Shown piece by piece: positions 1 through 12,177 of a DNA stretch of 36,128 bases (position 1 is its first letter; each line of letters starts with the position of its first letter). The stretch is from a virus (Duplodnaviria > Heunggongvirae > Uroviricota > Caudoviricetes): positions 1 to 36,128 of IMG/VR virus record IMGVR_UViG_2778261667_000013; one strand, given 5' to 3'. The notes under the pieces were generated by a model. The model worked only from the letters and a program-made list of their open reading frames with translations. It ran no database searches and had not been told where the DNA came from. A program made the translations under genes and the position numbers.

Positions 1-579
1 CTAATTACTACTGGTCGCCATCGCTCGGATTGAGCGTAAATCATCCAGGTTGCTCAACCTCTCTTTCATCTCCCGCTGACGTTGATAAATCTCGTCGTTG
101 CGATCGACCTGCGCCTGCGCCATTGCTGCTGCCAGTTCTTCCAGTTCCGGCATCGACAGTTTCACCTGTTGATTATCGGCGTCACCCCACGCCATAACGT
201 CCCGCGCCGTGTCAGATTTCGCAGCCATTACCACAGGATAAAGACGGGCCATTGAGTCGGGGCCAGCATTCCAGGTACGACCGTTCCATTCGAACGTGAA
301 CGGCAGTGCTTCCTGTTTTGTTCGCCACGCCTCGATTTCCCGCTTTTTGGCATCTTTTGCCGCTGCGATAAGTTCAGGTGTGACTGTAAACGGGGCGATT
401 TCACCCCATTTGCCGCTCTGTAACTCTTCCCAGATGCGCTGGCCTGTCGGCGCAGTATCATCCTGCATGGCGGTATACGGGACGAATTCCGTTTCACCTT
501 CAAATAACACCTCGCAGTCAACCGCGCCATTTTCAAGATAATGCGCGTTTCTGATGCCTTTTACTGCTCTGATTTTCAT
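1..579 (-). CDS. tail fibre assembly protein (Tfa-like chaperone) of second fibre module
   Basis: 192 aa ORF directly downstream of the long fibre gene; size and position typical of Tfa chaperones; stop codon at window positions 1-3. Confidence 0.55.
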   Translation of the reverse strand: MKIRAVKGIRNAHYLENGAVDCEVLFEGETEFVPYTAMQDDTAPTGQRIWEELQSGKWGEIAPFTVTPELIAAAKDAKKREIEAWRTKQEALPFTFEWNGRTWNAGPDSMARLYPVVMAAKSDTARDVMAWGDADNQQVKLSMPELEELAAAMAQAQVDRNDEIYQRQREMKERLSNLDDLRSIRAMATSSN

Positions 580-593
580 GTTTTATTTCCTCG

Positions 594-2876
594 TTACTCG
601 ATGCGCACAAACAGGCAAATACGGGCTTCATTACCGTAAGAATCTCTTGCACCGGATAACGCCATATAACGCCCAGGAAATGTGTACCCGGTAGCCCCAA
701 CCTGTGGCGTTGAGCCGTACGACCCTATCCCCGTAGGTGCTGCGCACTTAATATTTACGGCCCCCAGACGCGAACCCGTCACCACATCACCAAGACCAAT
801 TTTGATTTCTTTATCCCCGGAAGTTGTTCCGCGATAAACGGCAAGCACCGGAACGCCAATACCCGGGTACTGAAAATAAGTTCCCGCCCCTGCCGTGGAC
901 GACAGATACTCGCTTAACATCTTTGGCGTCAGAGACAGATTTCTGACTGATGTCAGCCCCCATGTCACCACCCCGTCAACATATGCAGAGCTGTACTGTG
1001 CGTAAAAAACAGCCTGTTCAGAATTTGATTGATATCTGCTGTAAAAAAACAATCCCTTGTTGGTTTCTGCCGGATTACTGCTACTGCCCCCGGTCGGAAA
1101 AAGCACCACGTCAACAATCCCCATAAAAGAATCGCTGTCCGGAAATAAATTTGAATTGTACGAATAAACCAAATAACGCCCGTCAGTGGCGCTCGTTACC
1201 CACTCCAGGAATTTTTCATCGGAATTAAAATCAAGACGTTCGGACTGGCTGAACGCATAACCAAAACCAAAGGCACCAGGCAGTGCCAGCCTGCCCGGCG
1301 TGCGGTCGCGGATATCGCTCTGGGGTTCCATTGTCGCAGCCGCTTTCAGCTCAAGCTCCGTGCGCATGGCTTCTGTTGTGTCCAGTGCCAGTAATGCGCG
1401 GGCTTTTTCTGACAACTCTGCCAGTAAAATCCGGCCCCCTGCACTGAAATAAGGCAGCGTGTTTTCTTCCGGTGTTATCTGGCTGACAGCCGTTAACACG
1501 TCATTAAGCGGCTGTTTACCTGCCAGTGCATTAGTGACCGTTGTCGCAAAGTTCGGGTCATTACCCAGCGCCGCTGCCAGCTCGTTCAGCGTGTCGAGGG
1601 CTTCCGGTGACGAGCCAACCAGCGCAGCGAGCAGTTTGCGGACAAAAGCAGCATTCGCTGTTTCCAGACCGGCAGCATCATCCGGTGGTGTTGGTGTGGT
1701 TGGCGTACCTGTGAACGCCGGGCTGTCCAGTGGCGCTTTTGTTTTCGTCTCGTCCATGACGGTTTTGACGGCTTTTGCCGTGGCTGCCAGCTCTTCGCTG
1801 GCGTTGTCAGTGTCACTACAGAGCTGTACCAGGCCTTTTTCTGTCGTGGTGGCATTGGTTCCCTTCAGGTCATCAACTATCCGTTGCGCCTCGTCCCTGT
1901 GCTGTTTCGCTTCCTGCGCATTGCCTGCGCTCGCATCCTGGCTGACCTTCGCCTGCCGGGCATATTCGGCAGCGTTATTTTCATGGCCCAGCGCAACATT
2001 TGCCGCATTTTCTGCACTGGTCGCAGCCGAAGACGCAGCTTCCTTATACTGGCTGGCGCGTTCGGCTGCATCAACCGATTCATCCCGCGCCACCCCTGAT
2101 GTCTGTGCACTGTTTTCTGCCTCATTCGCAAAACGTTCCGCATCATCACGGGCTGTTGTGGTGGCTTCTGCGTCCTGTGCGGTTTGCTGTGCGATTTCTG
2201 CTGCACTATCCGCGTGGCTTTTTGCATCCTGCTCGCTCAGGGCGGCGTTATCTGCATTGTTTTTTGATTCCTCTGCGCTGGATGCAGAATCATCTGCTGC
2301 CTGTTTAGCCTGCTTTACTGCATCTGTAACACTCTGCACCCCCTCCTGTACCTGCCCGGCGTTCAGCTCAACTTCTGAGGCCAGCTGTTCAACGCGCTGT
2401 TTGCTGGCTGCTACAGTTTCTGCATTCTGCTGAACATTATCTGCCAGCGTCTGGCAGTCGCTCTTAATTTGTTGCACATCAGCGACATGTTGCCCGGCCT
2501 GTCGTTCGCTTTCCGCTGCCGCTTCCGCGCTCTGCTGCGCCTGCGCCACCATTTCCTCGAAGCGTTTCACCACGTCGGGTTTGAGGTCGCCTTCATCGGG
2601 GGCGGTCAGAAAATCATTCAGTGTGCCGGGCTTTGAGTCATCGTATACAGCGATATCACCCACGCAGCACTTGGGGCCGTTCTTTTGCTTGATGTGTACG
2701 GTGTATTTGCCTTTTTGCGCTTCAAATGCATACTGTCCCGCCGCATCGGTTTCAATAATCGCGAATGATTCAGTGACCACCTCACTGGTATTAACCAGTG
2801 CATCTAAATAAATTTTGCATTCCGCCATCGGAACGCCAGCGCCATTAATAAGCGCGCCTGAGATTAATACAGACAT
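594..2876 (-). CDS. long tail fibre protein, lambda Stf-like N-terminal and central regions with a distinct C-terminal domain
   Basis: 760 aa; N-terminus resembles prophage side-tail-fibre N-terminal domain; long Ala/Gln/Glu-rich coiled-coil segment; conserved block ...KGLVQLCSDTDNASEELAATAKAVK...LNELAAALGNDPNFATTVTNALAGKQP...; own RBS (GAGG) after a terminator. Confidence 0.75.
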   Translation of the reverse strand: MSVLISGALINGAGVPMAECKIYLDALVNTSEVVTESFAIIETDAAGQYAFEAQKGKYTVHIKQKNGPKCCVGDIAVYDDSKPGTLNDFLTAPDEGDLKPDVVKRFEEMVAQAQQSAEAAAESERQAGQHVADVQQIKSDCQTLADNVQQNAETVAASKQRVEQLASEVELNAGQVQEGVQSVTDAVKQAKQAADDSASSAEESKNNADNAALSEQDAKSHADSAAEIAQQTAQDAEATTTARDDAERFANEAENSAQTSGVARDESVDAAERASQYKEAASSAATSAENAANVALGHENNAAEYARQAKVSQDASAGNAQEAKQHRDEAQRIVDDLKGTNATTTEKGLVQLCSDTDNASEELAATAKAVKTVMDETKTKAPLDSPAFTGTPTTPTPPDDAAGLETANAAFVRKLLAALVGSSPEALDTLNELAAALGNDPNFATTVTNALAGKQPLNDVLTAVSQITPEENTLPYFSAGGRILLAELSEKARALLALDTTEAMRTELELKAAATMEPQSDIRDRTPGRLALPGAFGFGYAFSQSERLDFNSDEKFLEWVTSATDGRYLVYSYNSNLFPDSDSFMGIVDVVLFPTGGSSSNPAETNKGLFFYSRYQSNSEQAVFYAQYSSAYVDGVVTWGLTSVRNLSLTPKMLSEYLSSTAGAGTYFQYPGIGVPVLAVYRGTTSGDKEIKIGLGDVVTGSRLGAVNIKCAAPTGIGSYGSTPQVGATGYTFPGRYMALSGARDSYGNEARICLFVRIE

Positions 2877-2888
2877 AAAACCTCTGAA

Positions 2889-2914
2889 TGATAAAAAGCC
2901 GCCTGCGGGCGGCT
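2889..2914 (-). terminator. rho-independent terminator between the two tail-fibre modules
   Basis: Minus-strand hairpin AGCCGCCCGCAGGCGGCT (7 bp GC stem) followed by TTTTTAT, just after the Tfa stop at 2922; coordinates approximate. Confidence 0.6.
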
Positions 2915-2921
2915 GTCTGAT

Positions 2922-3497
2922 TTATTCAAAGTCTGACCAGTCAATATCTGGCGCGTTTTCCGGTTGAATGCGATTTAACTTTATTCGTAATTTCCTGAGG
3001 GCTGTCAGCTGTTCCTGTTCTTCTGGCGTCGCTTCACCAAAATCAACGGCATCCTGTAAAACGGCGATTTGCTCTCCCATCTGTTTAAGCAGACCCGCTT
3101 TCTTCTCTGCCGCCTGATTTATCAGCGCATTACGCCTGGCTTCTTCATCTGTCACCCACTGACTGCCATTCCAGCGTTGGTATTCGCCATCAGGAGAAAC
3201 AGAAGTCACATTTTCAGGAAGGCTTCCCAGTTCAGACACTGTTACAGCTACTCCGGTTTCTGTTGAATAAACCGTTTTCCCTCGGTGGTCTTCCATCAGA
3301 TGCCATTTCATTTCATCAGCATTAAACACGGCAGCAAAACCCGCCGGAATATCAGGAGGCGCAATATCTGTTGAATTAGCTGGCAGACCTGTATGAGGTG
3401 GAATATATGCGTCGCTTTCGCCAATAAATTCATTTGTGCCATCGAGATAATTAAATACACGAATGGTTTGTGCTTCTGCACTCATTTTGAAAGTCAT
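2922..3497 (-). CDS. tail fibre assembly protein (Mu U-like / TfaE-like)
   Basis: 191 aa; N-terminal block [40 protein letters not shown] and ...QRWNGSQWV... typical of Tfa chaperones; start overlaps fibre stop (ATGA at 3497). Confidence 0.8.
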
Positions 3498-4483
3498 TAT
3501 GCCAGCCTCACAATATAGTTATATGCAATGTTTTTTACGGTGTTTTCCGCATTACCAGTAGCGTTAACCGTGATGGTATGTCCGTGCGCACCCAATGCCA
3601 CAGTGTGTGCATGGGCACCAATACCTACGGTGTGGTTATGTGCCCCAATGTCGACTGTATGTGCATGATTGCCTGATGCACTTGTAGTCGTAGCACCTTT
3701 ATCACTTCGGGGAACACCATAATCTGCACCGCCTGATTGCACGCTCACAGCAAAGCCAACGGTATGTGTATGATTTCCCGTATTGTTCGTTGATTTTGTG
3801 CCGTGGTTAAACGTGCTGACTGTCTTCGTGCCGTAATCAAATGAGCTGGTCGTTTTAGTACCGAGGTCAGTATTTGATGCGCTGGCACTGTGGGTGTGCG
3901 ACTTGATGCCATCCTGTTCCTGAGACAATACGGCACGCCCACTGGCAGGCTTACCCTTAATTGTCCAGCCGCGCATATCAGGAATAACCCCGGACGGATA
4001 GGCAGCCGCAAGTTTAGGGTAAGAGCCTTTATCAAAACTTTGCCCCTGCATTAAGGCATAACCGGATGGCACAGAATCAGATGGCCACGGGATTGGTGTC
4101 CCGACCGGTAAAGCAGTGCTCTGTAACTCTGTAATTTTTTCTGCTAACGCCTTTATTGCCTTTGGCGTGGCTGCCAGCTCTTCTGAGTCACTGTCTGTTG
4201 CGCTACTGAGCTGAACGATGCCTTTCTTCGTTAATGATGCGTCAGGAACTTTTTTCCCGACATATAAAGCCAGCGCCTCAACCAGTTGATTCTGTTTTTT
4301 CGGGTCCGGGTTTACACCGGCCTCTTTAAGGACGTTAATCACCTCCTGCTGCAAATCGCGCGTTGCTGCCTGATGATTATTCATATATTCAGCGTAAACG
4401 ATGGTTCCCTCAATTCCCTGAGTCGGGTCACCATCATGAAACAATTGATCCGGCGTATTCACCGGAGGCATTAAATTCTGCAT
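3497..4483 (-). CDS. short tail fibre protein (Mu S-like) with His-rich C-terminal tip
   Basis: 328 aa; conserved fibre motif [26 protein letters not shown]; C-terminus ...[72 protein letters not shown]... with repeated GAHxHTV units, as in lambda Stf-type fibre tips. Confidence 0.8.
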
Positions 4484-5055
4484 TACTGCTTATCCTCATA
4501 CGTGAAATAACAGTCTGTAAAAGCCGGTTTAAGGTCTTTAAATGTGTTTTCTAAAATGGATTCACCAAAGGCCGTCAGCGGCTCGCCGGTTGCCGATGCC
4601 CCCGTTCTGAAACGGTAGACCGGCGTTTTTGTTCCGATAACATTGACCTGCCATGCCCAGCGGATTTCCGGTATCAGCAGACGGTCGCCGCAGCGGTTTA
4701 TCCCCACCCGGAATGGTCGCGGCTCCGTAATGGTGATGGTATAGCCCAGGCTGGCGGCAAGGCTCTTAAAGTAAGGGATTGACAGCCCGCCTGTGGCTGC
4801 CATTTTTACCAGGATATTCTGCCGCCGCTCCTGTTGTGTGGCACCTTCACGGGGGACAACACCGTACACGCGCTCCCAGTCGGACAGCGTCATCGATGCC
4901 TGCAACGGGGTGATTTGTGCCAGAACGCTCGCCGCTGATGCCTTCACGGCCTCCATGACGTCAGCCTCGGCTGCCAGCTCTGCAGAAATATAATTCCCGT
5001 TCGGGTCATAACTGACAGGCGGCAGCATGGCGCGAAATAAATCGACCATATTCAT
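4483..5055 (-). CDS. tail/baseplate protein (Mu R / gp48-like)
   Basis: 190 aa ORF between baseplate J-like gene and tail fibre, matching Mu gp48 position; assignment by synteny and general resemblance. Confidence 0.55.
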
Positions 5056-5058
5056 GAA

Positions 5059-6138
5059 TCACCCCTCACGCGGAAAAGACTGAATATCAATATTTCCCGG
5101 GCGCAGCCATTCCCACGTTGACGCGTTAATAATGGCTTTTACGTTGTCTGCAGGCGTAACGATTCGCCGGTCACTCACGCCGGAAATGAGTGAAATCTGG
5201 GTTTCCAGTTGTGAAATAATTAATTCTTGCCCCGGCTCCAGTCGGTTCATAAAATCCGTGATAACGTCAGTTATCTGCGGTTTTATCTGCTCAACGGTCA
5301 GGCCGCTGGTTTTTACCCGGACAACGAAATCAACGGCTTTTTTCGTCGGGGCCAGTACCATCGTGTCCTTCGCTGTAACCGGGCGGACTTCCTCAATATG
5401 TGCCAGCACGGCATTAATCAGTTCCTGAGAGGGAAGATCATTAGCTGACGTAATGGCCACATCAACCGTCCCCAGTCCACGACGCAACGGCTCCACATAC
5501 GCAGACGTAACGCCATCCACTTCCAGCGCCCAGCGTTTGTAATCATATTTGTTACCGCCAGCGGGCGGCCTGCGCAGAATATCCAGATAACGCGCCAGCA
5601 GGTCGGCGTCGCTTTCCCTGTCCGTTCCGCCGGTCAGGGATTTAATCGTCACCGTGCTGTTGATGCCTTCCGGCGGGCTGACCAGCGTTGCCGTCTGCGT
5701 CGTGGATGCATTCGTCTGTGCCCCCGTGGCGGTGCTTTTTACCGTCACCTCCGCGCTGCCTTCATCACCGATGGTGCAGTCTGCTGTGGTGGCCACGCTG
5801 ACACCTTCACCACGAATTTCCGCACCGGCTGGCAGCGTCTTACCGGGTGTGCCGGTAATCACTACCGGACCGGATGAGGCTGTTGCTTTTTTACGAAAAA
5901 CATTGCGCGTGCGACAGTGCAGCTCCAGATATTCAGGGTCTGCCGTGTCAGGAAACACCTGACGGAGTATCCACCCCTGATGCATATAAAGCCCGTCAGC
6001 CACGCCGGATACGGCATTTGCACGAATGCGGTAATCGCTGTCAGCGCCGGTGTCTATGGTTTCTCCCGGCAGGGCGTTAGCGATATCACGTAGCTGGCGT
6101 TCTGTGTTTTCAGCAACGCCCGGAACAGGAAACGGCAT
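5059..6138 (-). CDS. baseplate J-like protein (Mu W / gp47-like)
   Basis: 359 aa; size, position and sequence character of baseplate J family; precedes gp48-like and fibre genes. Confidence 0.7.
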   Translation of the reverse strand: MPFPVPGVAENTERQLRDIANALPGETIDTGADSDYRIRANAVSGVADGLYMHQGWILRQVFPDTADPEYLELHCRTRNVFRKKATASSGPVVITGTPGKTLPAGAEIRGEGVSVATTADCTIGDEGSAEVTVKSTATGAQTNASTTQTATLVSPPEGINSTVTIKSLTGGTDRESDADLLARYLDILRRPPAGGNKYDYKRWALEVDGVTSAYVEPLRRGLGTVDVAITSANDLPSQELINAVLAHIEEVRPVTAKDTMVLAPTKKAVDFVVRVKTSGLTVEQIKPQITDVITDFMNRLEPGQELIISQLETQISLISGVSDRRIVTPADNVKAIINASTWEWLRPGNIDIQSFPREG

Positions 6139-6488
6139 TACATAATCCTCACAGGGTGTTCAAACGTCTGCGGTGTGCCCGCGTTATCCGTGACGGTGAT
6201 TAACAGCAACAGCCAGCCGCGCTGGCCCGCTTTCGTGTCAACGGTAATGGATTTTGCCCGCCCGTCATTGAGCAGTGGCTGAAGTGCCTGGCTGGCATAC
6301 TGCGCCGCCAGTCTGTGAACACGGGGAACGTCTTTTTCCCGCTTCAGCTCGTGCAGGCGTGACCCCAGCGACGCATCCGCCCAGTAACTGCCAAGCGGTG
6401 TCGCCAGTCGCAGATAAACCGCGTTATGGAGTGTGTAAATCCGGCGGCGTTCGTAGTCGCCGGTTGCAGGTGAAATCGTCTGGTCCAT
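6138..6488 (-). CDS. baseplate protein (Mu V / gp46-like)
   Basis: 116 aa, ATGA overlap with downstream J-like gene; synteny with Mu gp46. Confidence 0.55.
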   Translation of the reverse strand: MDQTISPATGDYERRRIYTLHNAVYLRLATPLGSYWADASLGSRLHELKREKDVPRVHRLAAQYASQALQPLLNDGRAKSITVDTKAGQRGWLLLLITVTDNAGTPQTFEHPVRIM

Positions 6489-6526
6489 GCCGCCAGTCTG
6501 GCAGCATGGACAGGTCAGAATCAGGT

Positions 6527-6541
6527 GAGGGTGTTCAGCAC
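6527..6541 (-). promoter_or_regulatory. conserved motif GGGTGTTCAGCACCC-like, site 1 (between gp45-like and gp46-like genes)
   Basis: gagggtgttcagcac on the plus strand, ~40 nt upstream of the gp46-like start; coordinates approximate. Confidence 0.4.
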
Positions 6542-7195
6542 TTAATTAACCGGCGTGTCAGACATGCCGTGTGGGGTTGGGTGTTTGTGTGTTCCGATTT
6601 TAACGCCATTAATGGTGACGTCAACGGAGGTAAGCACACCACCTACATGGTTGATGTTGCCTTCAAAAGTGGCGGCGTATTCCTTGCCCCCACTGATGGC
6701 CATGCCACCGTTGCCGGTGATTTTACCTTCCACCGTCAGCTTATCGCTGGCCGTCAGTAACGGTGTCGTGAATGCGGCGTTCTCCTCTGCCTCAACCTCA
6801 TAGCGTTTGCATTTCACCCGGTAAACGTCACATTCTGTTTCAATAATCCGCCCGCGCTTCAGTACGATTTTTGCGCCTTCGTCGGTATACAGGGCCACCT
6901 CGCCGGGTTTCAGTTCCGTCAGGCGATATGCGCCGTGCTCTGTGGCCACGACGACGGTATGGGAGGTATTGCCGTTCAGCGGAACGGCAATACCCATTGA
7001 GCCGGGCGGCGGGGATGTGGTGAGGCCGTAATGCTGAAAATACTCCGCACCGTCCAGCTGTTCGCCTGCCAGCCCGTTCAACTGAAGCAACTGTACTTTG
7101 GTCGAACTGTCCACCGTACCGGTCACCACCCTGAATGCCTGGCGAACGGCGGACAGCGCCTGCTGTATGCGCTGATTAATCTTGTCCCACATCAT
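6542..7195 (-). CDS. baseplate assembly/spike protein (Mu Q / gp45-like, V-family)
   Basis: 217 aa; position between P-like and gp46-like genes; 4-nt overlap with upstream gene. Confidence 0.65.
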   Translation of the reverse strand: MMWDKINQRIQQALSAVRQAFRVVTGTVDSSTKVQLLQLNGLAGEQLDGAEYFQHYGLTTSPPPGSMGIAVPLNGNTSHTVVVATEHGAYRLTELKPGEVALYTDEGAKIVLKRGRIIETECDVYRVKCKRYEVEAEENAAFTTPLLTASDKLTVEGKITGNGGMAISGGKEYAATFEGNINHVGGVLTSVDVTINGVKIGTHKHPTPHGMSDTPVN

Positions 7196-8403
7196 TTCTC
7201 CCAGACCTTAACAATGGCGACCTCTTTTTTCTTTTTGCCCCTGCGGTGATGGCGTTTCTTCTCGCGCGGGAAGGCGTCAGGTATCCACACGCCGTCCTCC
7301 TTAAAGCGGAGCCGGGTTGTCTTCCCGTTACGGCCTCCGCTGAACTCACGCCCCATCAGGAAAAAGATGGCGTCGATGCCGTGGGGTTCGCTGACAATCC
7401 GCACACGCTGGCCGGGCTGCCACAGGACACCGTCCGCCGTGCGATGACCTGCAACCAGTGCGACGATATCCAGCCCCGACAGACGGGCATCACTCATCAT
7501 TTTTTTGGCGCGCCAGTTCACCTGCTCCAGGTTGCTGGTGTCACCCTGAGTGATAATCTGCGGGCGGTAATAATCCACGGTGGGGTCGGTGGCCACAGCT
7601 TTCATGTTATGAATGCCTGTCTGGCCATTGTCCGTATTACCGCCGTCCCGCCCGGATAATGTGCGCACGCTGCCGTCCTCGTTCCAGATATCCAGTGGCA
7701 CTGTGGCCAGCTGCTTTTTGCTGTCTGCGCGGCGGGCGTGGCTCTGTGCCAGCACTGTAAGTTCGGAGAAGCAGCCGTTAATGGACCGGGTATCATCCAG
7801 CTCCATCACGTTGTTCCCGGTGCCGTCCAGCTTCAGAATCAGCGTATCCACCGGCGTGGTGGTGTAGTCAGGGCCACCCACAACCAGCGTCCCGTCAGGC
7901 TCAAACCACGGCCATAAGCCGCGACCGGCGGCAGCTTTAGCCAGTGCATCCCACGCACGCATCCCCGGCTCTATAACGACCTTGTCATTACGTGACACAC
8001 CGGACGCCTGAATACGAATGCGCTGTATCCCCAGCGGTCTGACTATCCTGTCGATGACCTCGTCCAGTGTCAGCTGGTTGGCGCTGAACACCGGCGCGGC
8101 ACAGTCCACCAGAATGGCGGCATCATCACGCCCGGACAGCGTCAGCGTGCAGCTCTGACGGGATACACTGCGGCGCACGCTGTCCACGCGACCACTGAGC
8201 ACCGTTTCGTCTCCCACCTGCAACCGGACTGGCGCACCCCGGACGATATCCGCCGGGAACACCTTTTCAGGCAGTCCCAACTGAAGCTGCCAGCCGTCGG
8301 CAGCTTTCAGGAAATCACTGTCAATACGGTAACTGCTCCAGTCAGAATGCGACCTTCCGGCAATGACCAGACTGATTTTGTCGTCGTTATTTTGCGTAGG
8401 CAT
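7192..8403 (-). CDS. tail protein (Mu P / gp44-like)
   Basis: 403 aa; follows N-like gene with 17-nt overlap; synteny with Mu P. Confidence 0.6.
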   Translation of the reverse strand: MPTQNNDDKISLVIAGRSHSDWSSYRIDSDFLKAADGWQLQLGLPEKVFPADIVRGAPVRLQVGDETVLSGRVDSVRRSVSRQSCTLTLSGRDDAAILVDCAAPVFSANQLTLDEVIDRIVRPLGIQRIRIQASGVSRNDKVVIEPGMRAWDALAKAAAGRGLWPWFEPDGTLVVGGPDYTTTPVDTLILKLDGTGNNVMELDDTRSINGCFSELTVLAQSHARRADSKKQLATVPLDIWNEDGSVRTLSGRDGGNTDNGQTGIHNMKAVATDPTVDYYRPQIITQGDTSNLEQVNWRAKKMMSDARLSGLDIVALVAGHRTADGVLWQPGQRVRIVSEPHGIDAIFFLMGREFSGGRNGKTTRLRFKEDGVWIPDAFPREKKRHHRRGKKKKEVAIVKVWEK

Positions 8404-9736
8404 TAATCATCATCCCGGCGGTTATGTTGTTCGGGTCGCGCAGCTGCGGGTTCAGACGTTGCAGCTCTGCCGCACGGCTGTAATCGCCGTACCACTGCCA
8501 CGCCAGCAACAGCAGACAGCTGTCCGCCTGTACCTGTTTCTGCGTCAGCGGTGGGCGGCGTGAAAGCACCAGCAGGCCGACATCCTGCACGGATGCCGCC
8601 ACGTTCTTCATGCTCTGAATGATTTCCGGGTACATCAGCCCCAGCGGTGATGCGGTTTCGGTTATCCGTTCGCGTTCGCCTTCATAGCGTTCACGGAACA
8701 GCGTGATGGCGGCCTGTAAGCGGGTGCGCACATCCCCGACCAGTCGCCCGATATCCGCCGGTATAAGCTGTTCTGACTGGGCTTCATCGGACAGTATCGC
8801 CGTCGCCACGCTGGCCAGCTCTGAGGCCGCCAGAACCGCATAAGCCGCTTTCACGTCCTGTACGTCTTCCACGGACGCATCCGGCGGAAGTGCCACAGAC
8901 GGCGTTTTATCACCGCTGACCAGTGCGACCGGCAGCGCGACCAGCTCATCCATATCTGCCATCACCTCATTCCAGCAGGTCATCACTGTCGCAGAACTGG
9001 CGACGCTGTCTTCTCCGGTCAGTCCGGTCGTGGTGGCGGAATCAGTACGTTCCAGCACCGGCACCGCGTGCCCGACATCTGACGTGTGGATTTCCAGCAC
9101 CTCTGCCAGCCCGCCAATAAATTTCCCGGGTTCGCTGGCCAGCGACATCATATTGTCGATGGATGAGAGAAAATCGCTTTTGAACGTCAGCAGGGTATTT
9201 ACCAGTGTGGCGCGCACTGTCTGGATTTTTTTAATCACGCTGTTAATGGTCTTTAAAGGGGCTGTAACAGCGTCAAATAATTCGCTTAACTGTGCCAGTA
9301 ACTTATCCAGTTCTTCAAATAACTGCTGTGCAAACAACTCCGGTAACGGGGTGCTGAACAACGCGCTGCCGGTGCGGTTCTCCAGAAAACTCATGTCGAT
9401 GGTGCAGCTGTCCGGGCTTTCTGCGTCATGGCGGATGCTGTAGCCGGTCACAATCACCGACGGTACGGAGCCGTAAACCGGGTGAATCAGCTCACCATCG
9501 CCGCCTTCGTCCAGGGCGGCGATCAGCTTTTCAAGTTTATATTCGTAATACTCCCCCCACAGGAACGCCGTCATGCGGAACGGTCGCGCCTTGCGTCCGA
9601 GGTCGTGCAAATCCGCCCCGTCAACAAACGGGTATTCATAGACCGCATGGTCGCGGCTGATTTGTTCGTCCGTGTTCAGTACATCAAACTGCACGCCACG
9701 AAAGGAGGCGTTTTGCAGGTTTTCAGCCCAGCCCAT
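8387..9736 (-). CDS. DNA circularisation protein N-like tail protein (Mu gp43-like)
   Basis: 449 aa immediately downstream of tape measure (ATGA overlap at 9736); N-terminus MGWAENLQNASFRGVQFDVLNTDEQISRDHAVYEYPFVDGADLHDLGRKARPF typical of this family. Confidence 0.7.
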   Translation of the reverse strand: MGWAENLQNASFRGVQFDVLNTDEQISRDHAVYEYPFVDGADLHDLGRKARPFRMTAFLWGEYYEYKLEKLIAALDEGGDGELIHPVYGSVPSVIVTGYSIRHDAESPDSCTIDMSFLENRTGSALFSTPLPELFAQQLFEELDKLLAQLSELFDAVTAPLKTINSVIKKIQTVRATLVNTLLTFKSDFLSSIDNMMSLASEPGKFIGGLAEVLEIHTSDVGHAVPVLERTDSATTTGLTGEDSVASSATVMTCWNEVMADMDELVALPVALVSGDKTPSVALPPDASVEDVQDVKAAYAVLAASELASVATAILSDEAQSEQLIPADIGRLVGDVRTRLQAAITLFRERYEGERERITETASPLGLMYPEIIQSMKNVAASVQDVGLLVLSRRPPLTQKQVQADSCLLLLAWQWYGDYSRAAELQRLNPQLRDPNNITAGMMINAYAK

Positions 9737-12018
9737 CAGTAAGTTCCTCCCGTGCCTCTGTTGCCGTCCTGAAGGTTGTATTTGTTCACTGCCTCCGCCA
9801 CGACCTGACCATCGAGCACCAGTTGTGTGGTGAAATTAATGGGGCTGGCAGGTGGTCCCCAGTGCGTGAGGTATTCCGGCTGGGTGATGCGTCCGGGTTG
9901 CTTTGATGCTGTTTCAGACGCTGCCATTCCGGCTTGCTGTCGGACTTGTTCTGGTGTTGGCAGAGAATCACCGGCGATAACCCCGGTTTTTTTCAGTTCG
10001 TCAAGATACTGCTGGATCCATTTCTCGTTTTCTGTTGAGTAACCTTCGCCAAACTGCCACCACGGCTGATATTTTTCACGGGCAGCATCAATCAGCCACT
10101 GAGGATATTTAGTCCGTATATTTTTCCAGCGCTCCTCGCTTCCTTCGACGGCGGCGTCTTCTTCCGGGCTGGTTGCAGTGGCCAGTGCCGTAACGGTGCC
10201 ACCGAAAGAAAGCAGGCTACCGGCAATGCCGGGGAATTTAAATCCTTTGCCTTTTTTGACCGTGTTTTCAATTACATCACCGACAACCTCGCCAGCCTTG
10301 CCACCGGGTTTACCCCCGGTCAGGATTTTGATCCCGGCCCATGTCAGAGCCGCTGCGGTCATCGCTTCAATGGCTGTCGTGGCACCCACCACTGCTGTGG
10401 TCAGCCCCGGAAATTTTTCACCCGCCCAGCTTATGGCATCGGCCACAGTACCGGACGCATCAGCCAGCTTTTTCATGCTGTCCATTTGTGAAAATTCAAG
10501 CGTGTTTTTAGCCTGTTCGGTTTTAAAATCATTCGTGCCTGACATGAATTTAAAATCCAGATCTCCGGCGCGCTGACCTTCTGGCAGGGTGCGTTGCTGA
10601 CTGATTTCAGCTTCGACCTGCTTTCGGTATTCCGGGTTATTCCTGTAAGCCAGGATTGCCTTCAGTGCCTGCATATCACCGACAAGCTCACCAACACCGA
10701 ACCCCTCAAGAATTTTCGCCATAGACTCCAGAATTTTGTCCTGCTGGCCTTTGTCTTTTGTTGCTGCCAGGCGCTTCTGAAGCTCCTGATATTGTTTGTT
10801 GTTCGCGGCGACTTTATCAGCAAGGCGTGAAAATGCCTCTATCGGATCAATGCCGTTTTCCATAGCTCGGGTCAATGTACCGGGTAAATCAATACCCTTG
10901 CCATCAATCGTGATGCTTTTCGCCCTTGTTGCTGATTCACTACTGAAAAGTTTGGCCAACAGGTTTACAACGTTATTACCTGCCTCACTGCTGCTGCCTG
11001 CGGCAATACCTGCGACCTCATTAAATGCCAGTAATTTCTGGAATCCATCCAGTCCTTTCATTCCGGCGTTACCAGCTAACGCCATCTGAGGTCCAAGATG
11101 CTCCGCCATATCCCGTAGCTCAAAATTACCGGCTTTACCGGCTGCAATAGCCATATTAAACATGGCCGGAAGATCGTTGTCTGTCAGTCCAAATGTTTGC
11201 TTAGCTTTGGCCGCCATAGTGACCAGATCGCGTGGGGATGCACCGGATGCAGTAGCAAATTTCATAATCTGCGGTAAGAGATTATTCGCGGTATCCCAGG
11301 AAAAAGCGCCGCTGGCCAACATCTCATTCATTGCTTCAGCTGCATCCTCTTTCGTTCCGCCACCATACGTTACCGCCGCGCGGATACTGTTTTTCAGCTT
11401 TTCACGCCCAAACTGCCTGCCTTCCAGACCACCATCACTGAACGCCGTGTTCGCCATCATGCTGAGCTGACGTTCATAACTCATTTGATTTCTGACTGGT
11501 TGCGTCATAATGGCGGCCCCTGCCATAATTCCGCCGCCTATTGTCACGGCATTCCCGCCAAATGCAGCCGCACGGGCAAAACGCCCCCGTTCAGGGATAA
11601 CAGGCGTTTTCGCCATCTTCATCTGAGCCTGAGTGACGCCATCCAGTTCACGCTTGAGTGCCCGGGCTTTTTCCCGGGTGGCCTGCATGGCGCGCTCCTG
11701 CTCCTGCGCAGATTCAAAACCGGCGCGGGCCAGACGGTTATAGCTGGCAACCGTCTGATAAATTTCACGCCGGATTTCACGTTCTGCACGAATACCGAGC
11801 GTTTCCCGGGCACGGGCGGCACGCTGTATCTCTTTTGCCGCCTTTTTCGTGCTGTTAACGCTTTCCTGCTCGGTACGCTTCTGCTCTGCGCCTGCCTTCC
11901 GTGTCGCCTTTGTTACACCTTCGGTGGCTTTGATAACCTGTTTTTGTCCCTTTTCCAGAACCTGCGAGGCTTCGTCCTTCGCAGTCAGGGTCATGCCAAC
12001 TTTGAAATTACCGGCCAT
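9736..12018 (-). CDS. tail tape measure protein
   Basis: 760 aa, Ala/Gly-rich with predicted long helical regions and hydrophobic Gly-rich central segments; located between tail chaperone and N-like gene. Confidence 0.8.
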   Translation of the reverse strand: MAGNFKVGMTLTAKDEASQVLEKGQKQVIKATEGVTKATRKAGAEQKRTEQESVNSTKKAAKEIQRAARARETLGIRAEREIRREIYQTVASYNRLARAGFESAQEQERAMQATREKARALKRELDGVTQAQMKMAKTPVIPERGRFARAAAFGGNAVTIGGGIMAGAAIMTQPVRNQMSYERQLSMMANTAFSDGGLEGRQFGREKLKNSIRAAVTYGGGTKEDAAEAMNEMLASGAFSWDTANNLLPQIMKFATASGASPRDLVTMAAKAKQTFGLTDNDLPAMFNMAIAAGKAGNFELRDMAEHLGPQMALAGNAGMKGLDGFQKLLAFNEVAGIAAGSSSEAGNNVVNLLAKLFSSESATRAKSITIDGKGIDLPGTLTRAMENGIDPIEAFSRLADKVAANNKQYQELQKRLAATKDKGQQDKILESMAKILEGFGVGELVGDMQALKAILAYRNNPEYRKQVEAEISQQRTLPEGQRAGDLDFKFMSGTNDFKTEQAKNTLEFSQMDSMKKLADASGTVADAISWAGEKFPGLTTAVVGATTAIEAMTAAALTWAGIKILTGGKPGGKAGEVVGDVIENTVKKGKGFKFPGIAGSLLSFGGTVTALATATSPEEDAAVEGSEERWKNIRTKYPQWLIDAAREKYQPWWQFGEGYSTENEKWIQQYLDELKKTGVIAGDSLPTPEQVRQQAGMAASETASKQPGRITQPEYLTHWGPPASPINFTTQLVLDGQVVAEAVNKYNLQDGNRGTGGTY

Positions 12019-12177
12019 TTTTCTGCTTACCTTTTCTGCGTTTCTTTCTGAGGGATTTAAATGACTGGCGGGTGGTCTGTGAGGTGTCCTTCCTTCCTGA
12101 GCCGCCGTTCAGCCTGTCAACGGCGGCAAGCCAGCCGTCCAGCTCGGGACGGCTCATGGTCATGATTTGCTCTTCGG

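Follow-up and report, generated by a model that had tools for sequence, protein, structure and literature searches.

Whether a phage with a contractile tail would display two different tail fibres at once and, if so, where the second of them would be held, is the question raised by the left end of the stretch of DNA analysed here (the window: 36,128 nucleotides, nt; IMG/VR virus record IMGVR_UViG_2778261667_000013, positions 1 to 36,128). What it contains is a Mu-like transposable prophage from E. coli, nearly complete and with a contractile tail, of which the window gives the late and right-hand part. The original prediction proposed that it contains two complete fibre-plus-helper modules in tandem and in direct orientation. 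This proved correct, the four minus-strand open reading frames (ORFs) concerned encoding proteins of 328 (fibre 1, 3497..4483), 191 (Tfa1, 2922..3497), 760 (fibre 2, 594..2876) and 192 amino acids (aa) (a DUF4376 protein, 1..579); all features below are on the minus strand unless otherwise indicated. The same prediction spoke of a dual-fibre system. The part of this claim that concerns the genes stands, since the two modules have unrelated anchors; that both fibres are expressed and displayed together is something we infer. The N-terminus of fibre 2 is the collar domain of the lambda side fibre, which implies an attachment site separate from the socket in the baseplate, and it is probable, if far from certain, that two sets of fibres are displayed together on independent anchors.

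Two fibres with unrelated anchors

Fibre 2 matched the Pfam family phage_tail_N (PF08400) over aa 1-131 (4.5e-49), and its first 95 residues (2592..2876) were assigned to the StfN-type collar (anchor) domain of lambda by Pfam, by comparison with PDB entry 9E7M, and by AlphaFold2 (AF2) modelling with Foldseek searches. In BLASTP comparisons, aa 1-123 were 41% identical to the N-terminus of lambda Stf (orf-401), while aa 1-92 matched chain Ta of PDB 9E7M/9MGH (gpStfN) at 1.4e-15 with the sequence and at 2e-44 with a small profile. The AF2 model of residues 1-130 (predicted local distance difference test, pLDDT, 82) had a Foldseek template modelling (TM) score of 0.85 to 9E7M. The long fibre had been predicted to have an Stf-type N-terminus and shaft, and the short fibre a tip like that of the lambda side fibre; BLASTP agreed on both counts (41% and 60% identity, respectively). 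The Stf-type N-terminus is the lambda collar domain itself, which the first reading of the sequence had not recognised.

Behind the anchor, the shaft of fibre 2 (1386..2579) is composed of a putative coiled coil, a Phage_fiber_2 repeat and a stretch resembling the start of lambda orf-314. The coiled coil (aa ~100-340) is rich in Ala, Gln and Glu and matches Stf-type tail-fibre families of PHROG, the helix in the model running over aa 100-129; the repeat (Pfam) lies at aa 343-382 (1731-1850) and the orf-314-like stretch at aa 447-497 (1386-1538). Past the latter, no similarity to orf-314 was found by BLASTP, the tip of fibre 2 being unrelated to lambda. This tip, presumed to bind the receptor (aa ~499-760, 597..1382), resembled only the C-terminus of phiP27 L56 (32% identity by BLASTP over residues 499-759), and its AF2 model (pLDDT 68) gave no Foldseek match in the PDB below E 0.28. 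Homologues of the domain fall into 145 clusters, the named sources being E. coli, Salmonella and E. albertii; the few that sit on PF12571-type anchors (those of P2 H and Mu S) indicate that tips move between anchor types. The fibre closes with a near-invariant ending (...FPGRY.ALSG...LFVRIE), which may be the docking site for the helper encoded next. Many partial tail-fibre fragments of this family carry the name 'shikimate transporter, partial' at NCBI, which looks like a propagated misannotation. On the plus strand, a 324-aa, Ala/Ser-rich open frame (1459-2433) runs antisense to part of the coiled coil; it is most likely a by-product of repetitive GC-rich codons and not a gene.

The gene for that helper (1..579) begins 14 nt past the stop codon of fibre 2, and its own stop codon forms bases 1-3 of the window. 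It had been taken for a second Tfa, an assignment that has to be withdrawn: the protein has a DUF4376 domain in its C-terminal part (Pfam, 2.7e-16, aa 73-177), and no relation to Caudo_TAP was detected by Pfam, by BLASTP (E >4) or by hhalign (probability 0.7%). PHROG 1807 matched both helpers, with different parts of its profile. DUF4376 chaperones have been demonstrated experimentally in Alteromonas phage V22 (gp27) and as the partner of the Campylobacter CJIE1 H fibre (PMC7289586, PMC10579305, PMC7882524). These resemble the window's helper in their C-terminal DUF4376 domain, their variable N-terminus and the position of the gene directly downstream of a fibre gene; they differ in that their sequences are distant and the tips of their partner fibres unrelated. 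By analogy, the 1..579 protein is predicted to act as the chaperone that folds fibre 2. Its first ~60 residues are variable and the remainder, including the DUF4376 domain, is conserved, a pattern that appears to follow the same logic as that of Tfa proteins. The protein was 81% identical to phiP27 L57 over the aligned 180 residues (BLASTP) and ~79% identical to Rac-SA53 tail4. Between phages, the C-terminal part is 71-85% identical, while the fibre tips that precede it are only 19-40% identical (about 84-85% against 33% in the comparison with phiP27); the helper is therefore much more conserved than the tip it follows, which sets it apart from the V22 and CJIE1 helpers. When the DUF4376 sequence was used for a second protein search, all matches were at ≥90% identity.

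Fibre 1 is a baseplate fibre (Pfam Phage_fiber_2, Collar and Phage_fiber repeat) of the Mu S / P2 H type, encoded directly after the gp48-type baseplate wedge protein (4483..5055; YmfQ family; Pfam Phage_Mu_Gp48, 1.2e-30; 29% identical to Mu gp48 by BLASTP). Its anchor (aa 4-111, 4151-4474) is Mu gp49-like, with 36% identity to aa 12-141 of Mu S (BLASTP, 2e-14). Since the N-terminus of Mu gp49 (S) docks on a loop of gp48 (PMC11915804), fibre 1 can be read as an ordinary wedge-bound fibre, with gp48 as its predicted docking partner. The needle and tip (aa 115-328, 3500-4141) are of the lambda Stf/T4 gp37 type; they were 60% identical to the C-terminus of lambda Stf (orf-314; BLASTP, 8e-101) and matched the crystallised T4 gp37 tip (PDB 2XGF, 4.5e-77), HxH repeats included. 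Tfa1 is a lambda-type tail fibre assembly protein (Caudo_TAP, PF02413, 3e-32) that aligns with lambda Tfa from end to end at 61% identity (BLASTP), and is the only one of the two helpers to belong to that family. The two fibres share the Phage_fiber_2 motif and nothing else; in both, the motif is encoded by a 68-nt direct repeat (4158..4225 and 1771-1838, 76% identical).

Compared with Ur-lambda Stf (PDB 9E7M/9MGH), the lambda parts are here split over two separate fibres. Fibre 2 has the counterparts of the collar domain (42% identity, TM 0.85), of the linker, presumed to be flexible, and of the stretch from the start of orf-314, together with a putative coiled-coil shaft; the lambda distal tip and chaperone recur in the fibre 1 tip (60%) and Tfa1 (61%). 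Fibre 2 thus has the N-terminal StfN collar domain (PF08400) of a lambda-type Stf and lacks its gp37-like HxH tip and Caudo_TAP Tfa; its tip is different, its helper is a DUF4376 protein and its carrier is sheathed.

A working arrangement may be proposed from these parts. Fibre 1 would dock by its Mu S-type N-terminus on the gp48 wedge, as six trimers as in Mu, and its needle tip would be folded by the lambda-type Tfa1. Fibre 2 would consist of the StfN collar, the coiled-coil shaft and the unrelated tip, the last folded by the DUF4376 protein. The late tail operon would supply both sets, fibre 2 being reached by transcription that leaks through the terminator hairpin. The two anchors would use different, non-competing sites, and the presence of both fibres on the same virion would provide two receptor specificities at once.

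The junction between the modules and the slot of module 2

An intrinsic terminator and a separate ribosome-binding site had been predicted before module 2; a terminator-like hairpin and the ribosome-binding site were found. The spacer between Tfa1 and fibre 2 is 45 nt long and holds a terminator-like hairpin with a T tract (2886..2914; stem 2914-2897), which on the minus strand reads AGCCGCC-CGCA-GGCGGCT followed by TTTTTAT (seven pairs, six of them G-C; loop CGCA). A GAGG ribosome-binding site, read from the sequence, lies at 2881..2884, 4 nt upstream of the fibre 2 ATG (2876). Terminator-like motifs are plentiful in the region (20 found against 7.1 expected from shuffles); the one at 2914->2897 is intergenic and has the joint-highest number of G-C pairs among the motifs listed. 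C5 and TUM9812, relatives in backbone, also have a hairpin at this junction, alike in form but not in sequence, and lambda likewise has one after tfa; none was found at the inter-module junction of phiP27 or Rac-SA53. The hairpin appears to travel with the cassette formed by the fibre 1 tip and Tfa, and to mark the end of this first swapped cassette. In Yersinia similis (locus L011, 5737-6738), a gene for a family-2 glycosyltransferase stands between the Tfa gene and the StfN fibre gene, which identifies the junction as a module boundary; it may be an O-antigen-modifying moron.

Phage Mu resembles the window prophage in its transposase, in gp36-gp48 and the sheath, in the S-type anchor encoded next to gp48 and followed by a Caudo_TAP helper, and in varying its host range at the right end of the genome. 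The window differs from Mu in lacking gin, the inverted repeats and com/mom, and in that the second specificity is a complete gene in direct orientation with its own, unrelated anchor. The view that module 2 is not an invertible segment survived a check of the left flank: the prophage ends 83 bp beyond the window, and neither an invertase nor a G segment nor com/mom lies between the two. No inverted repeat of ≥18 nt was found in window positions 1-6000 and no gix-like crossover site in the window; the window prophage has no invertible switch of the Mu G-segment kind.

Relatives of the prophage occupy the same place differently. In E2348/69 and CFS3292, whose DNA was 89% identical across 4328-7000 and 92% identical across a wider backbone query, the order is instead a fibre, a Tfa, an inverted Tfa' and an inverted tip fragment (S'), the cassette (locus L018, 4258-6500, and locus L020, 4320-6500, respectively) being flanked by inverted repeats of 19-20 nt (TTCTCCCAAACCAAGGTTT). 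Neither prophage has an invertase gene of its own, so any inversion would need an invertase supplied in trans. The slot after Tfa is thus filled in one of two ways, by an invertible cassette like the G segment or by a tandem StfN module, and the latter takes the place of Mu's invertible alternative-tip cassette. The E2348/69-type comparison amounts to a natural experiment, an invertible tip cassette against a tandem second fibre in one slot.

A shared slot might suggest that the two fibres are alternatives for a single socket, a non-inverting equivalent of Mu G(+)/G(-) in which the level of expression would decide which one is used per virion or per burst; the hairpin could then act as the switch point. 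This we hold to be very improbable. The two N-termini are unrelated, fibre 2 has no Mu S-type anchor but a domain known to ring a tail, and nothing in the window would be able to mediate switching.

That the carrier is a transposable Mu-like phage is evident from its genes and from its ends, which lie at variable chromosomal sites. A protein identical to the 760-aa fibre is present in four NCBI assemblies. Carriers of the identical module include GCA_002965265.1, GCA_002965845.1 and GCA_013369055.2; among complete genomes E. coli UMNF18 comes nearest, with matches to 63% of the 4.6-kb fibre region at 91% identity, and its modules are accordingly not the same. In all four assemblies with the 760-aa protein, phage DNA runs 83 bp past the DUF4376 stop codon, ending ...GCGAAGTTACA; the right end, which is outside the window (locus L002, 12877-12959; also L003, L004 and L005), has the sequence ...CAGAAAAAAACGCGAAGTTACA. 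Beyond the Mu-type ...ACA end, three of the four assemblies continue into unrelated, differing host DNA (a fragment of a major facilitator superfamily transporter, a xanthine/uracil permease region and a lipopolysaccharide-export region), and in the fourth the contig stops 3 bp after ACA. With the prophage end the same in four assemblies and the host DNA different in three, this must be the right end of a transposable phage, and the differing flanks indicate active, near-random transposition. A MuA-type transposase and a MuB-like AAA+ ATPase are encoded at the right end of the window, and Mu-transpos_C, HTH_Tnp_Mu_1 and rve domains were found among its proteins. Other genes of the window are those for Mor, an endolysin, the Mu portal, gp36, gp37 and the sheath, together with the tail genes gp43/N, gp44, gp45, gp46, gp47/J and gp48. 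In E. coli JNE21-009 (locus L022, 1-4700), a member of the family adjoins another prophage at the genes for its tape measure and DNA circularisation, the two running in opposite orientations, and the last protein of its fibre region (351 aa) is unrelated to StfN; it has probably transposed into the tail operon of a resident prophage.

Conservation of the anchor and exchange of the tips

The order fibre - Caudo_TAP - StfN fibre - DUF4376 recurs at the end of the tail operon in phiP27 (L54-L57; NC_003356) and Rac-SA53 (KU052037), both with contractile tails, and as tail1-tail4 in vB_Apl-pPE4. When genome contigs were scanned with the anchor, six loci were retrieved (from Yersinia similis, Shigella flexneri and E. 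coli), and all six had this order. Since a sheath is present in Rac-SA53 and annotated in phiP27, three kinds of contractile-tail phage carry the module; in the contractile-tail prophages with the four-gene order, the StfN fibre is the second of two fibre modules. The anchor of the window was 63-69% identical to those of phiP27, Rac-SA53 and pPE4 (68-69% by tblastn; about 64-68% for the first two alone), and no more than ~50% identical to that of every siphophage Stf compared by tblastn (lambda, 21, Gifsy, Fels-1 and the Stx phages), the anchors of myophages forming a separate clade. Other parts of phiP27 and Rac-SA53 differ from the window: their backbones are integrase-type lambdoid or other and not transposable, gp48 and the fibre 1 anchor are only 15-26% identical, and the fibre 2 tips only about 33%. 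Their genes bear generic names in GenBank (tail fiber protein, hypothetical protein), and no interpretation of the four-gene set of phiP27 or Rac-SA53 was found in the literature searched. The module had been suspected of being a recently acquired mosaic; this applies to the tips, which are swapped cassettes, but not to the architecture, the order of which is conserved across backbones.

Within the Mu-like lineage, the search of 5426 complete E. coli genomes detected the backbone (4484-12100) in 59 (identity 91-97%), and at least 22 complete genomes of the species have this type of anchor. The gene order is the same in C5 and TUM9812, with other alleles, fibre 1 being 267 aa long and the StfN fibres 474 and 852 aa. 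Despite such differences in fibre length (474, 760 and 852 aa), StfN is 93-96% identical in aa sequence within the backbone; an N-terminal domain that is kept while the distal parts are replaced has the pattern of a virion-attachment domain. In comparison with C5/TUM9812, the DNA was 92-94% identical over 4158-7000; homology was lost over 2903-4158 (the fibre 1 tip, Tfa1 and the hairpin), returned at 83-90% over 2345/2386-2888/2903 (the StfN anchor and its ribosome-binding site), was lost again over ~580-2345 and came back in the C-terminal part of DUF4376 (76-81%). The breakpoint at 4158 is the start of the 68-nt direct repeat, and a dip in G+C content (48% at 3001-4000, against 52-60% in neighbouring tail genes) coincides with the swapped cassette of the fibre 1 tip and Tfa1. 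This alternation of homology means that both anchors stay with the lineage while the two tip-plus-helper cassettes are exchanged independently of each other, and the exchange would be horizontal.

A module that moves between unrelated backbones might also be a passenger or relic, acquired horizontally, poorly expressed behind the terminator and not assembled into the virion. The terminator-like hairpin directly upstream would fit this, as would the position at the far end of the prophage, a place in which morons accumulate (the Shigella IpaH-type effector described below; the glycosyltransferase between the Yersinia modules), and a neck that is not adapted to the module. The pattern of selection argues against it. 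The ratio of nonsynonymous to synonymous substitution rates (dN/dS) of the anchor was 0.05-0.07 at dS 0.3-0.5, in comparisons inside the Mu-like lineage as well as in that of phiP27 with Rac-SA53, and that of the C-terminal part of DUF4376 was 0.14-0.17; the StfN anchor is under strong purifying selection. The ORFs of the module were intact in every full-length example examined, the genes for fibre 2 and the DUF4376 protein both have good ribosome-binding sites, and the anchor type has been kept in the E. coli genomes counted above with its sequence nearly constant while the distal parts were replaced. We therefore consider it rather improbable that module 2 is a mere passenger, and continue to favour the co-display of both fibres.

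In Shigella flexneri and in E. coli ECMA0423 (loci L012/L014, 9019-11891), the region downstream of the DUF4376 gene encodes an effector of the IpaH type (LRR_TTSS with a NEL E3 ligase) and an invertase similar to Gin, its identity to the Mu protein being 77%. There is no inverted fibre cassette between them. The StfN fibre is split in both, from which it follows that the prophage is degraded.

Possible attachment of the second fibre

In Ur-lambda, the collar is a ring of 12 gpStfN copies that encircles the tail at the gpV/gpM junction; nothing but the beta4-beta5 loop fastens it there, and the four trimeric side fibres are on flexible linkers (PMC12617516). In a contractile tail this junction lies hidden beneath sheath and baseplate, and another site is needed for the collar. 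The window encodes a sheath and a Mu-type baseplate, and the arrangement of lambda Stf, with its collar at the junction of tube and distal tail protein of a non-contractile tail, does not apply to it.

Other virions offer precedents for the fold. After 9E7M, the next Foldseek matches of the anchor model were the neck collar-spike protein gp40 of Vibrio myophage XM1 (7KJK; E 1.4e-6, TM 0.62), followed by a chain of the tail complex of podophage Pan3 (E 2e-3), the neck fibre gp82N of myophage A-1(L) (8KEG; E 5e-3) and the tail collar fibre of siphophage Bxb1. At the level of fold, the anchor of fibre 2 is thus the N-terminal beta-sandwich plus helix seen in the neck or collar fibres of myophages. 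A link to XM1 gp40 at the level of sequence was considered and dropped (E 0.003 with the coiled coil included, E 0.72 for the anchor alone), and the fold-level match only was used. XM1 gp40 and A-1(L) gp82 resemble fibre 2 in having an N-terminal beta-sandwich, a helix leading into a trimeric coiled coil and a distal binding domain; they differ in copy number and neck partners (18 copies on gp4/gp5 in XM1, 15 on gp5 in A-1(L)). In both phages the anchors bind connector/terminator proteins at the neck (PMC10457771, PMC10966104). If both fibres are displayed, the neck would be the most plausible position for the collar, the sheath covering the tube. The geometry and the two solved myophage precedents are what favour it, and we give this site a little less than even confidence.

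What the anchor accompanies in different phages was also compared. The StfN anchors of phiP27 and Rac-SA53 are 96% identical, while gp48 is 15% and the fibre 1 N-termini 20% identical; ten virion proteins of phiP27, from portal to tape measure (portal, head, adaptor, neck, sheath, tube and tape-measure kinds), included none that matched the structural region of Rac-SA53. Among the window, C5 and TUM9812, the anchor is common and the fibre 1 tip and Tfa differ. From these comparisons, the StfN anchor varies independently of gp48, of both parts of fibre 1 (anchor and tip), of Tfa and of the neck proteins. An apparent correlation of the names 'phage protein Gp37' in relatives with StfN and 'DUF1834 family protein' in those without it proved to be an artefact of naming, gp36 and gp37 being 91-98% identical regardless; once the sequences themselves were compared, nothing was left of the contrast in annotation between C5 and E2348/69.

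These comparisons bear on the proposal that fibre 2 is co-displayed but away from the neck, at the periphery of the baseplate, at the junction of sheath and baseplate, or as a branch from fibre 1 or Tfa1 like those of branched receptor-binding complexes. Its gene does lie within the block of baseplate and fibre genes, and a distal position would suit contact with the host. However, the type of StfN follows none of the components to which it would then be attached, whether gp48, Tfa or either part of fibre 1 (anchor and tip); in phiP27 and Rac-SA53, a common anchor goes with unrelated wedges. Moreover, a 12-mer ring sized for the tube could not enclose the sheath (as judged from PMC12617516), and both solved myophage examples of the anchor fold are at the neck. 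An off-neck site is accordingly unlikely in our view. For the anchor, the simplest reading is that of a largely self-supporting ring that would make few specific contacts, as in lambda. More tentatively, and with clearly less confidence than in co-display itself, StfN collar fibres (anchor, shaft, tip and DUF4376 helper) might be backbone-agnostic plug-in modules that need no adapted partners and would assemble by themselves into a ring, probably round the neck, whatever the contractile tail; in Mu-like phages they would have replaced the invertible G segment as the means of carrying a second host specificity.

Several points weigh against an independently attached, co-displayed second fibre. 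In lambda, docking takes place at the gpV/gpM junction, to which a contractile tail gives no access. The likeness to XM1 gp40 is a precedent at the level of fold and not a demonstrated homology; transthyretin-like sandwiches are widespread among proteins. The neck shows no sign of adaptation to the StfN module, to judge from gp36 and gp37, the identity of which (94-98%) holds across relatives with and without it. A 96%-identical anchor on unrelated virions could reflect promiscuity, or equally a module that does not assemble in one of them. Finally, no sigma-70-like promoter was found for module 2, and most transcripts might end at the hairpin that precedes fibre 2.

The four-gene order has been public since phiP27 (2002) and is routinely annotated, and what is new is the combination of contractile tails with a collar fibre of the lambda type, each of a known kind; it was not until 2025 that the collar structure of the lambda side fibre became available, from a non-contractile tail (PMC12617516). 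No functional study of PF08400/Stf-type fibres on myophages, of the phiP27 fibres or of two-fibre Mu-like prophages was found in the searchable literature. Contractile-tail prophages of at least three kinds, from E. coli and related bacteria, have the same anchor domain, conserved and under selection. Should both fibres be displayed, dual-receptor prophages would include the Stx2e phage phiP27, the LT-II phage Rac-SA53 and the Mu-like family (found in about 1% of complete E. coli genomes), and their host range would not be predictable from one fibre alone. A self-assembling, portable collar fibre, if such it is, would be a useful part for retargeting phages and tailocins. As regards the third named carrier of the gene set, the baseplate proteins of PP818812.1, deposited as 'Actinobacillus phage vB_Apl-pPE4', are 99% identical to those of the E. 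coli prophage Rac-SA53, and its stated host may deserve checking.

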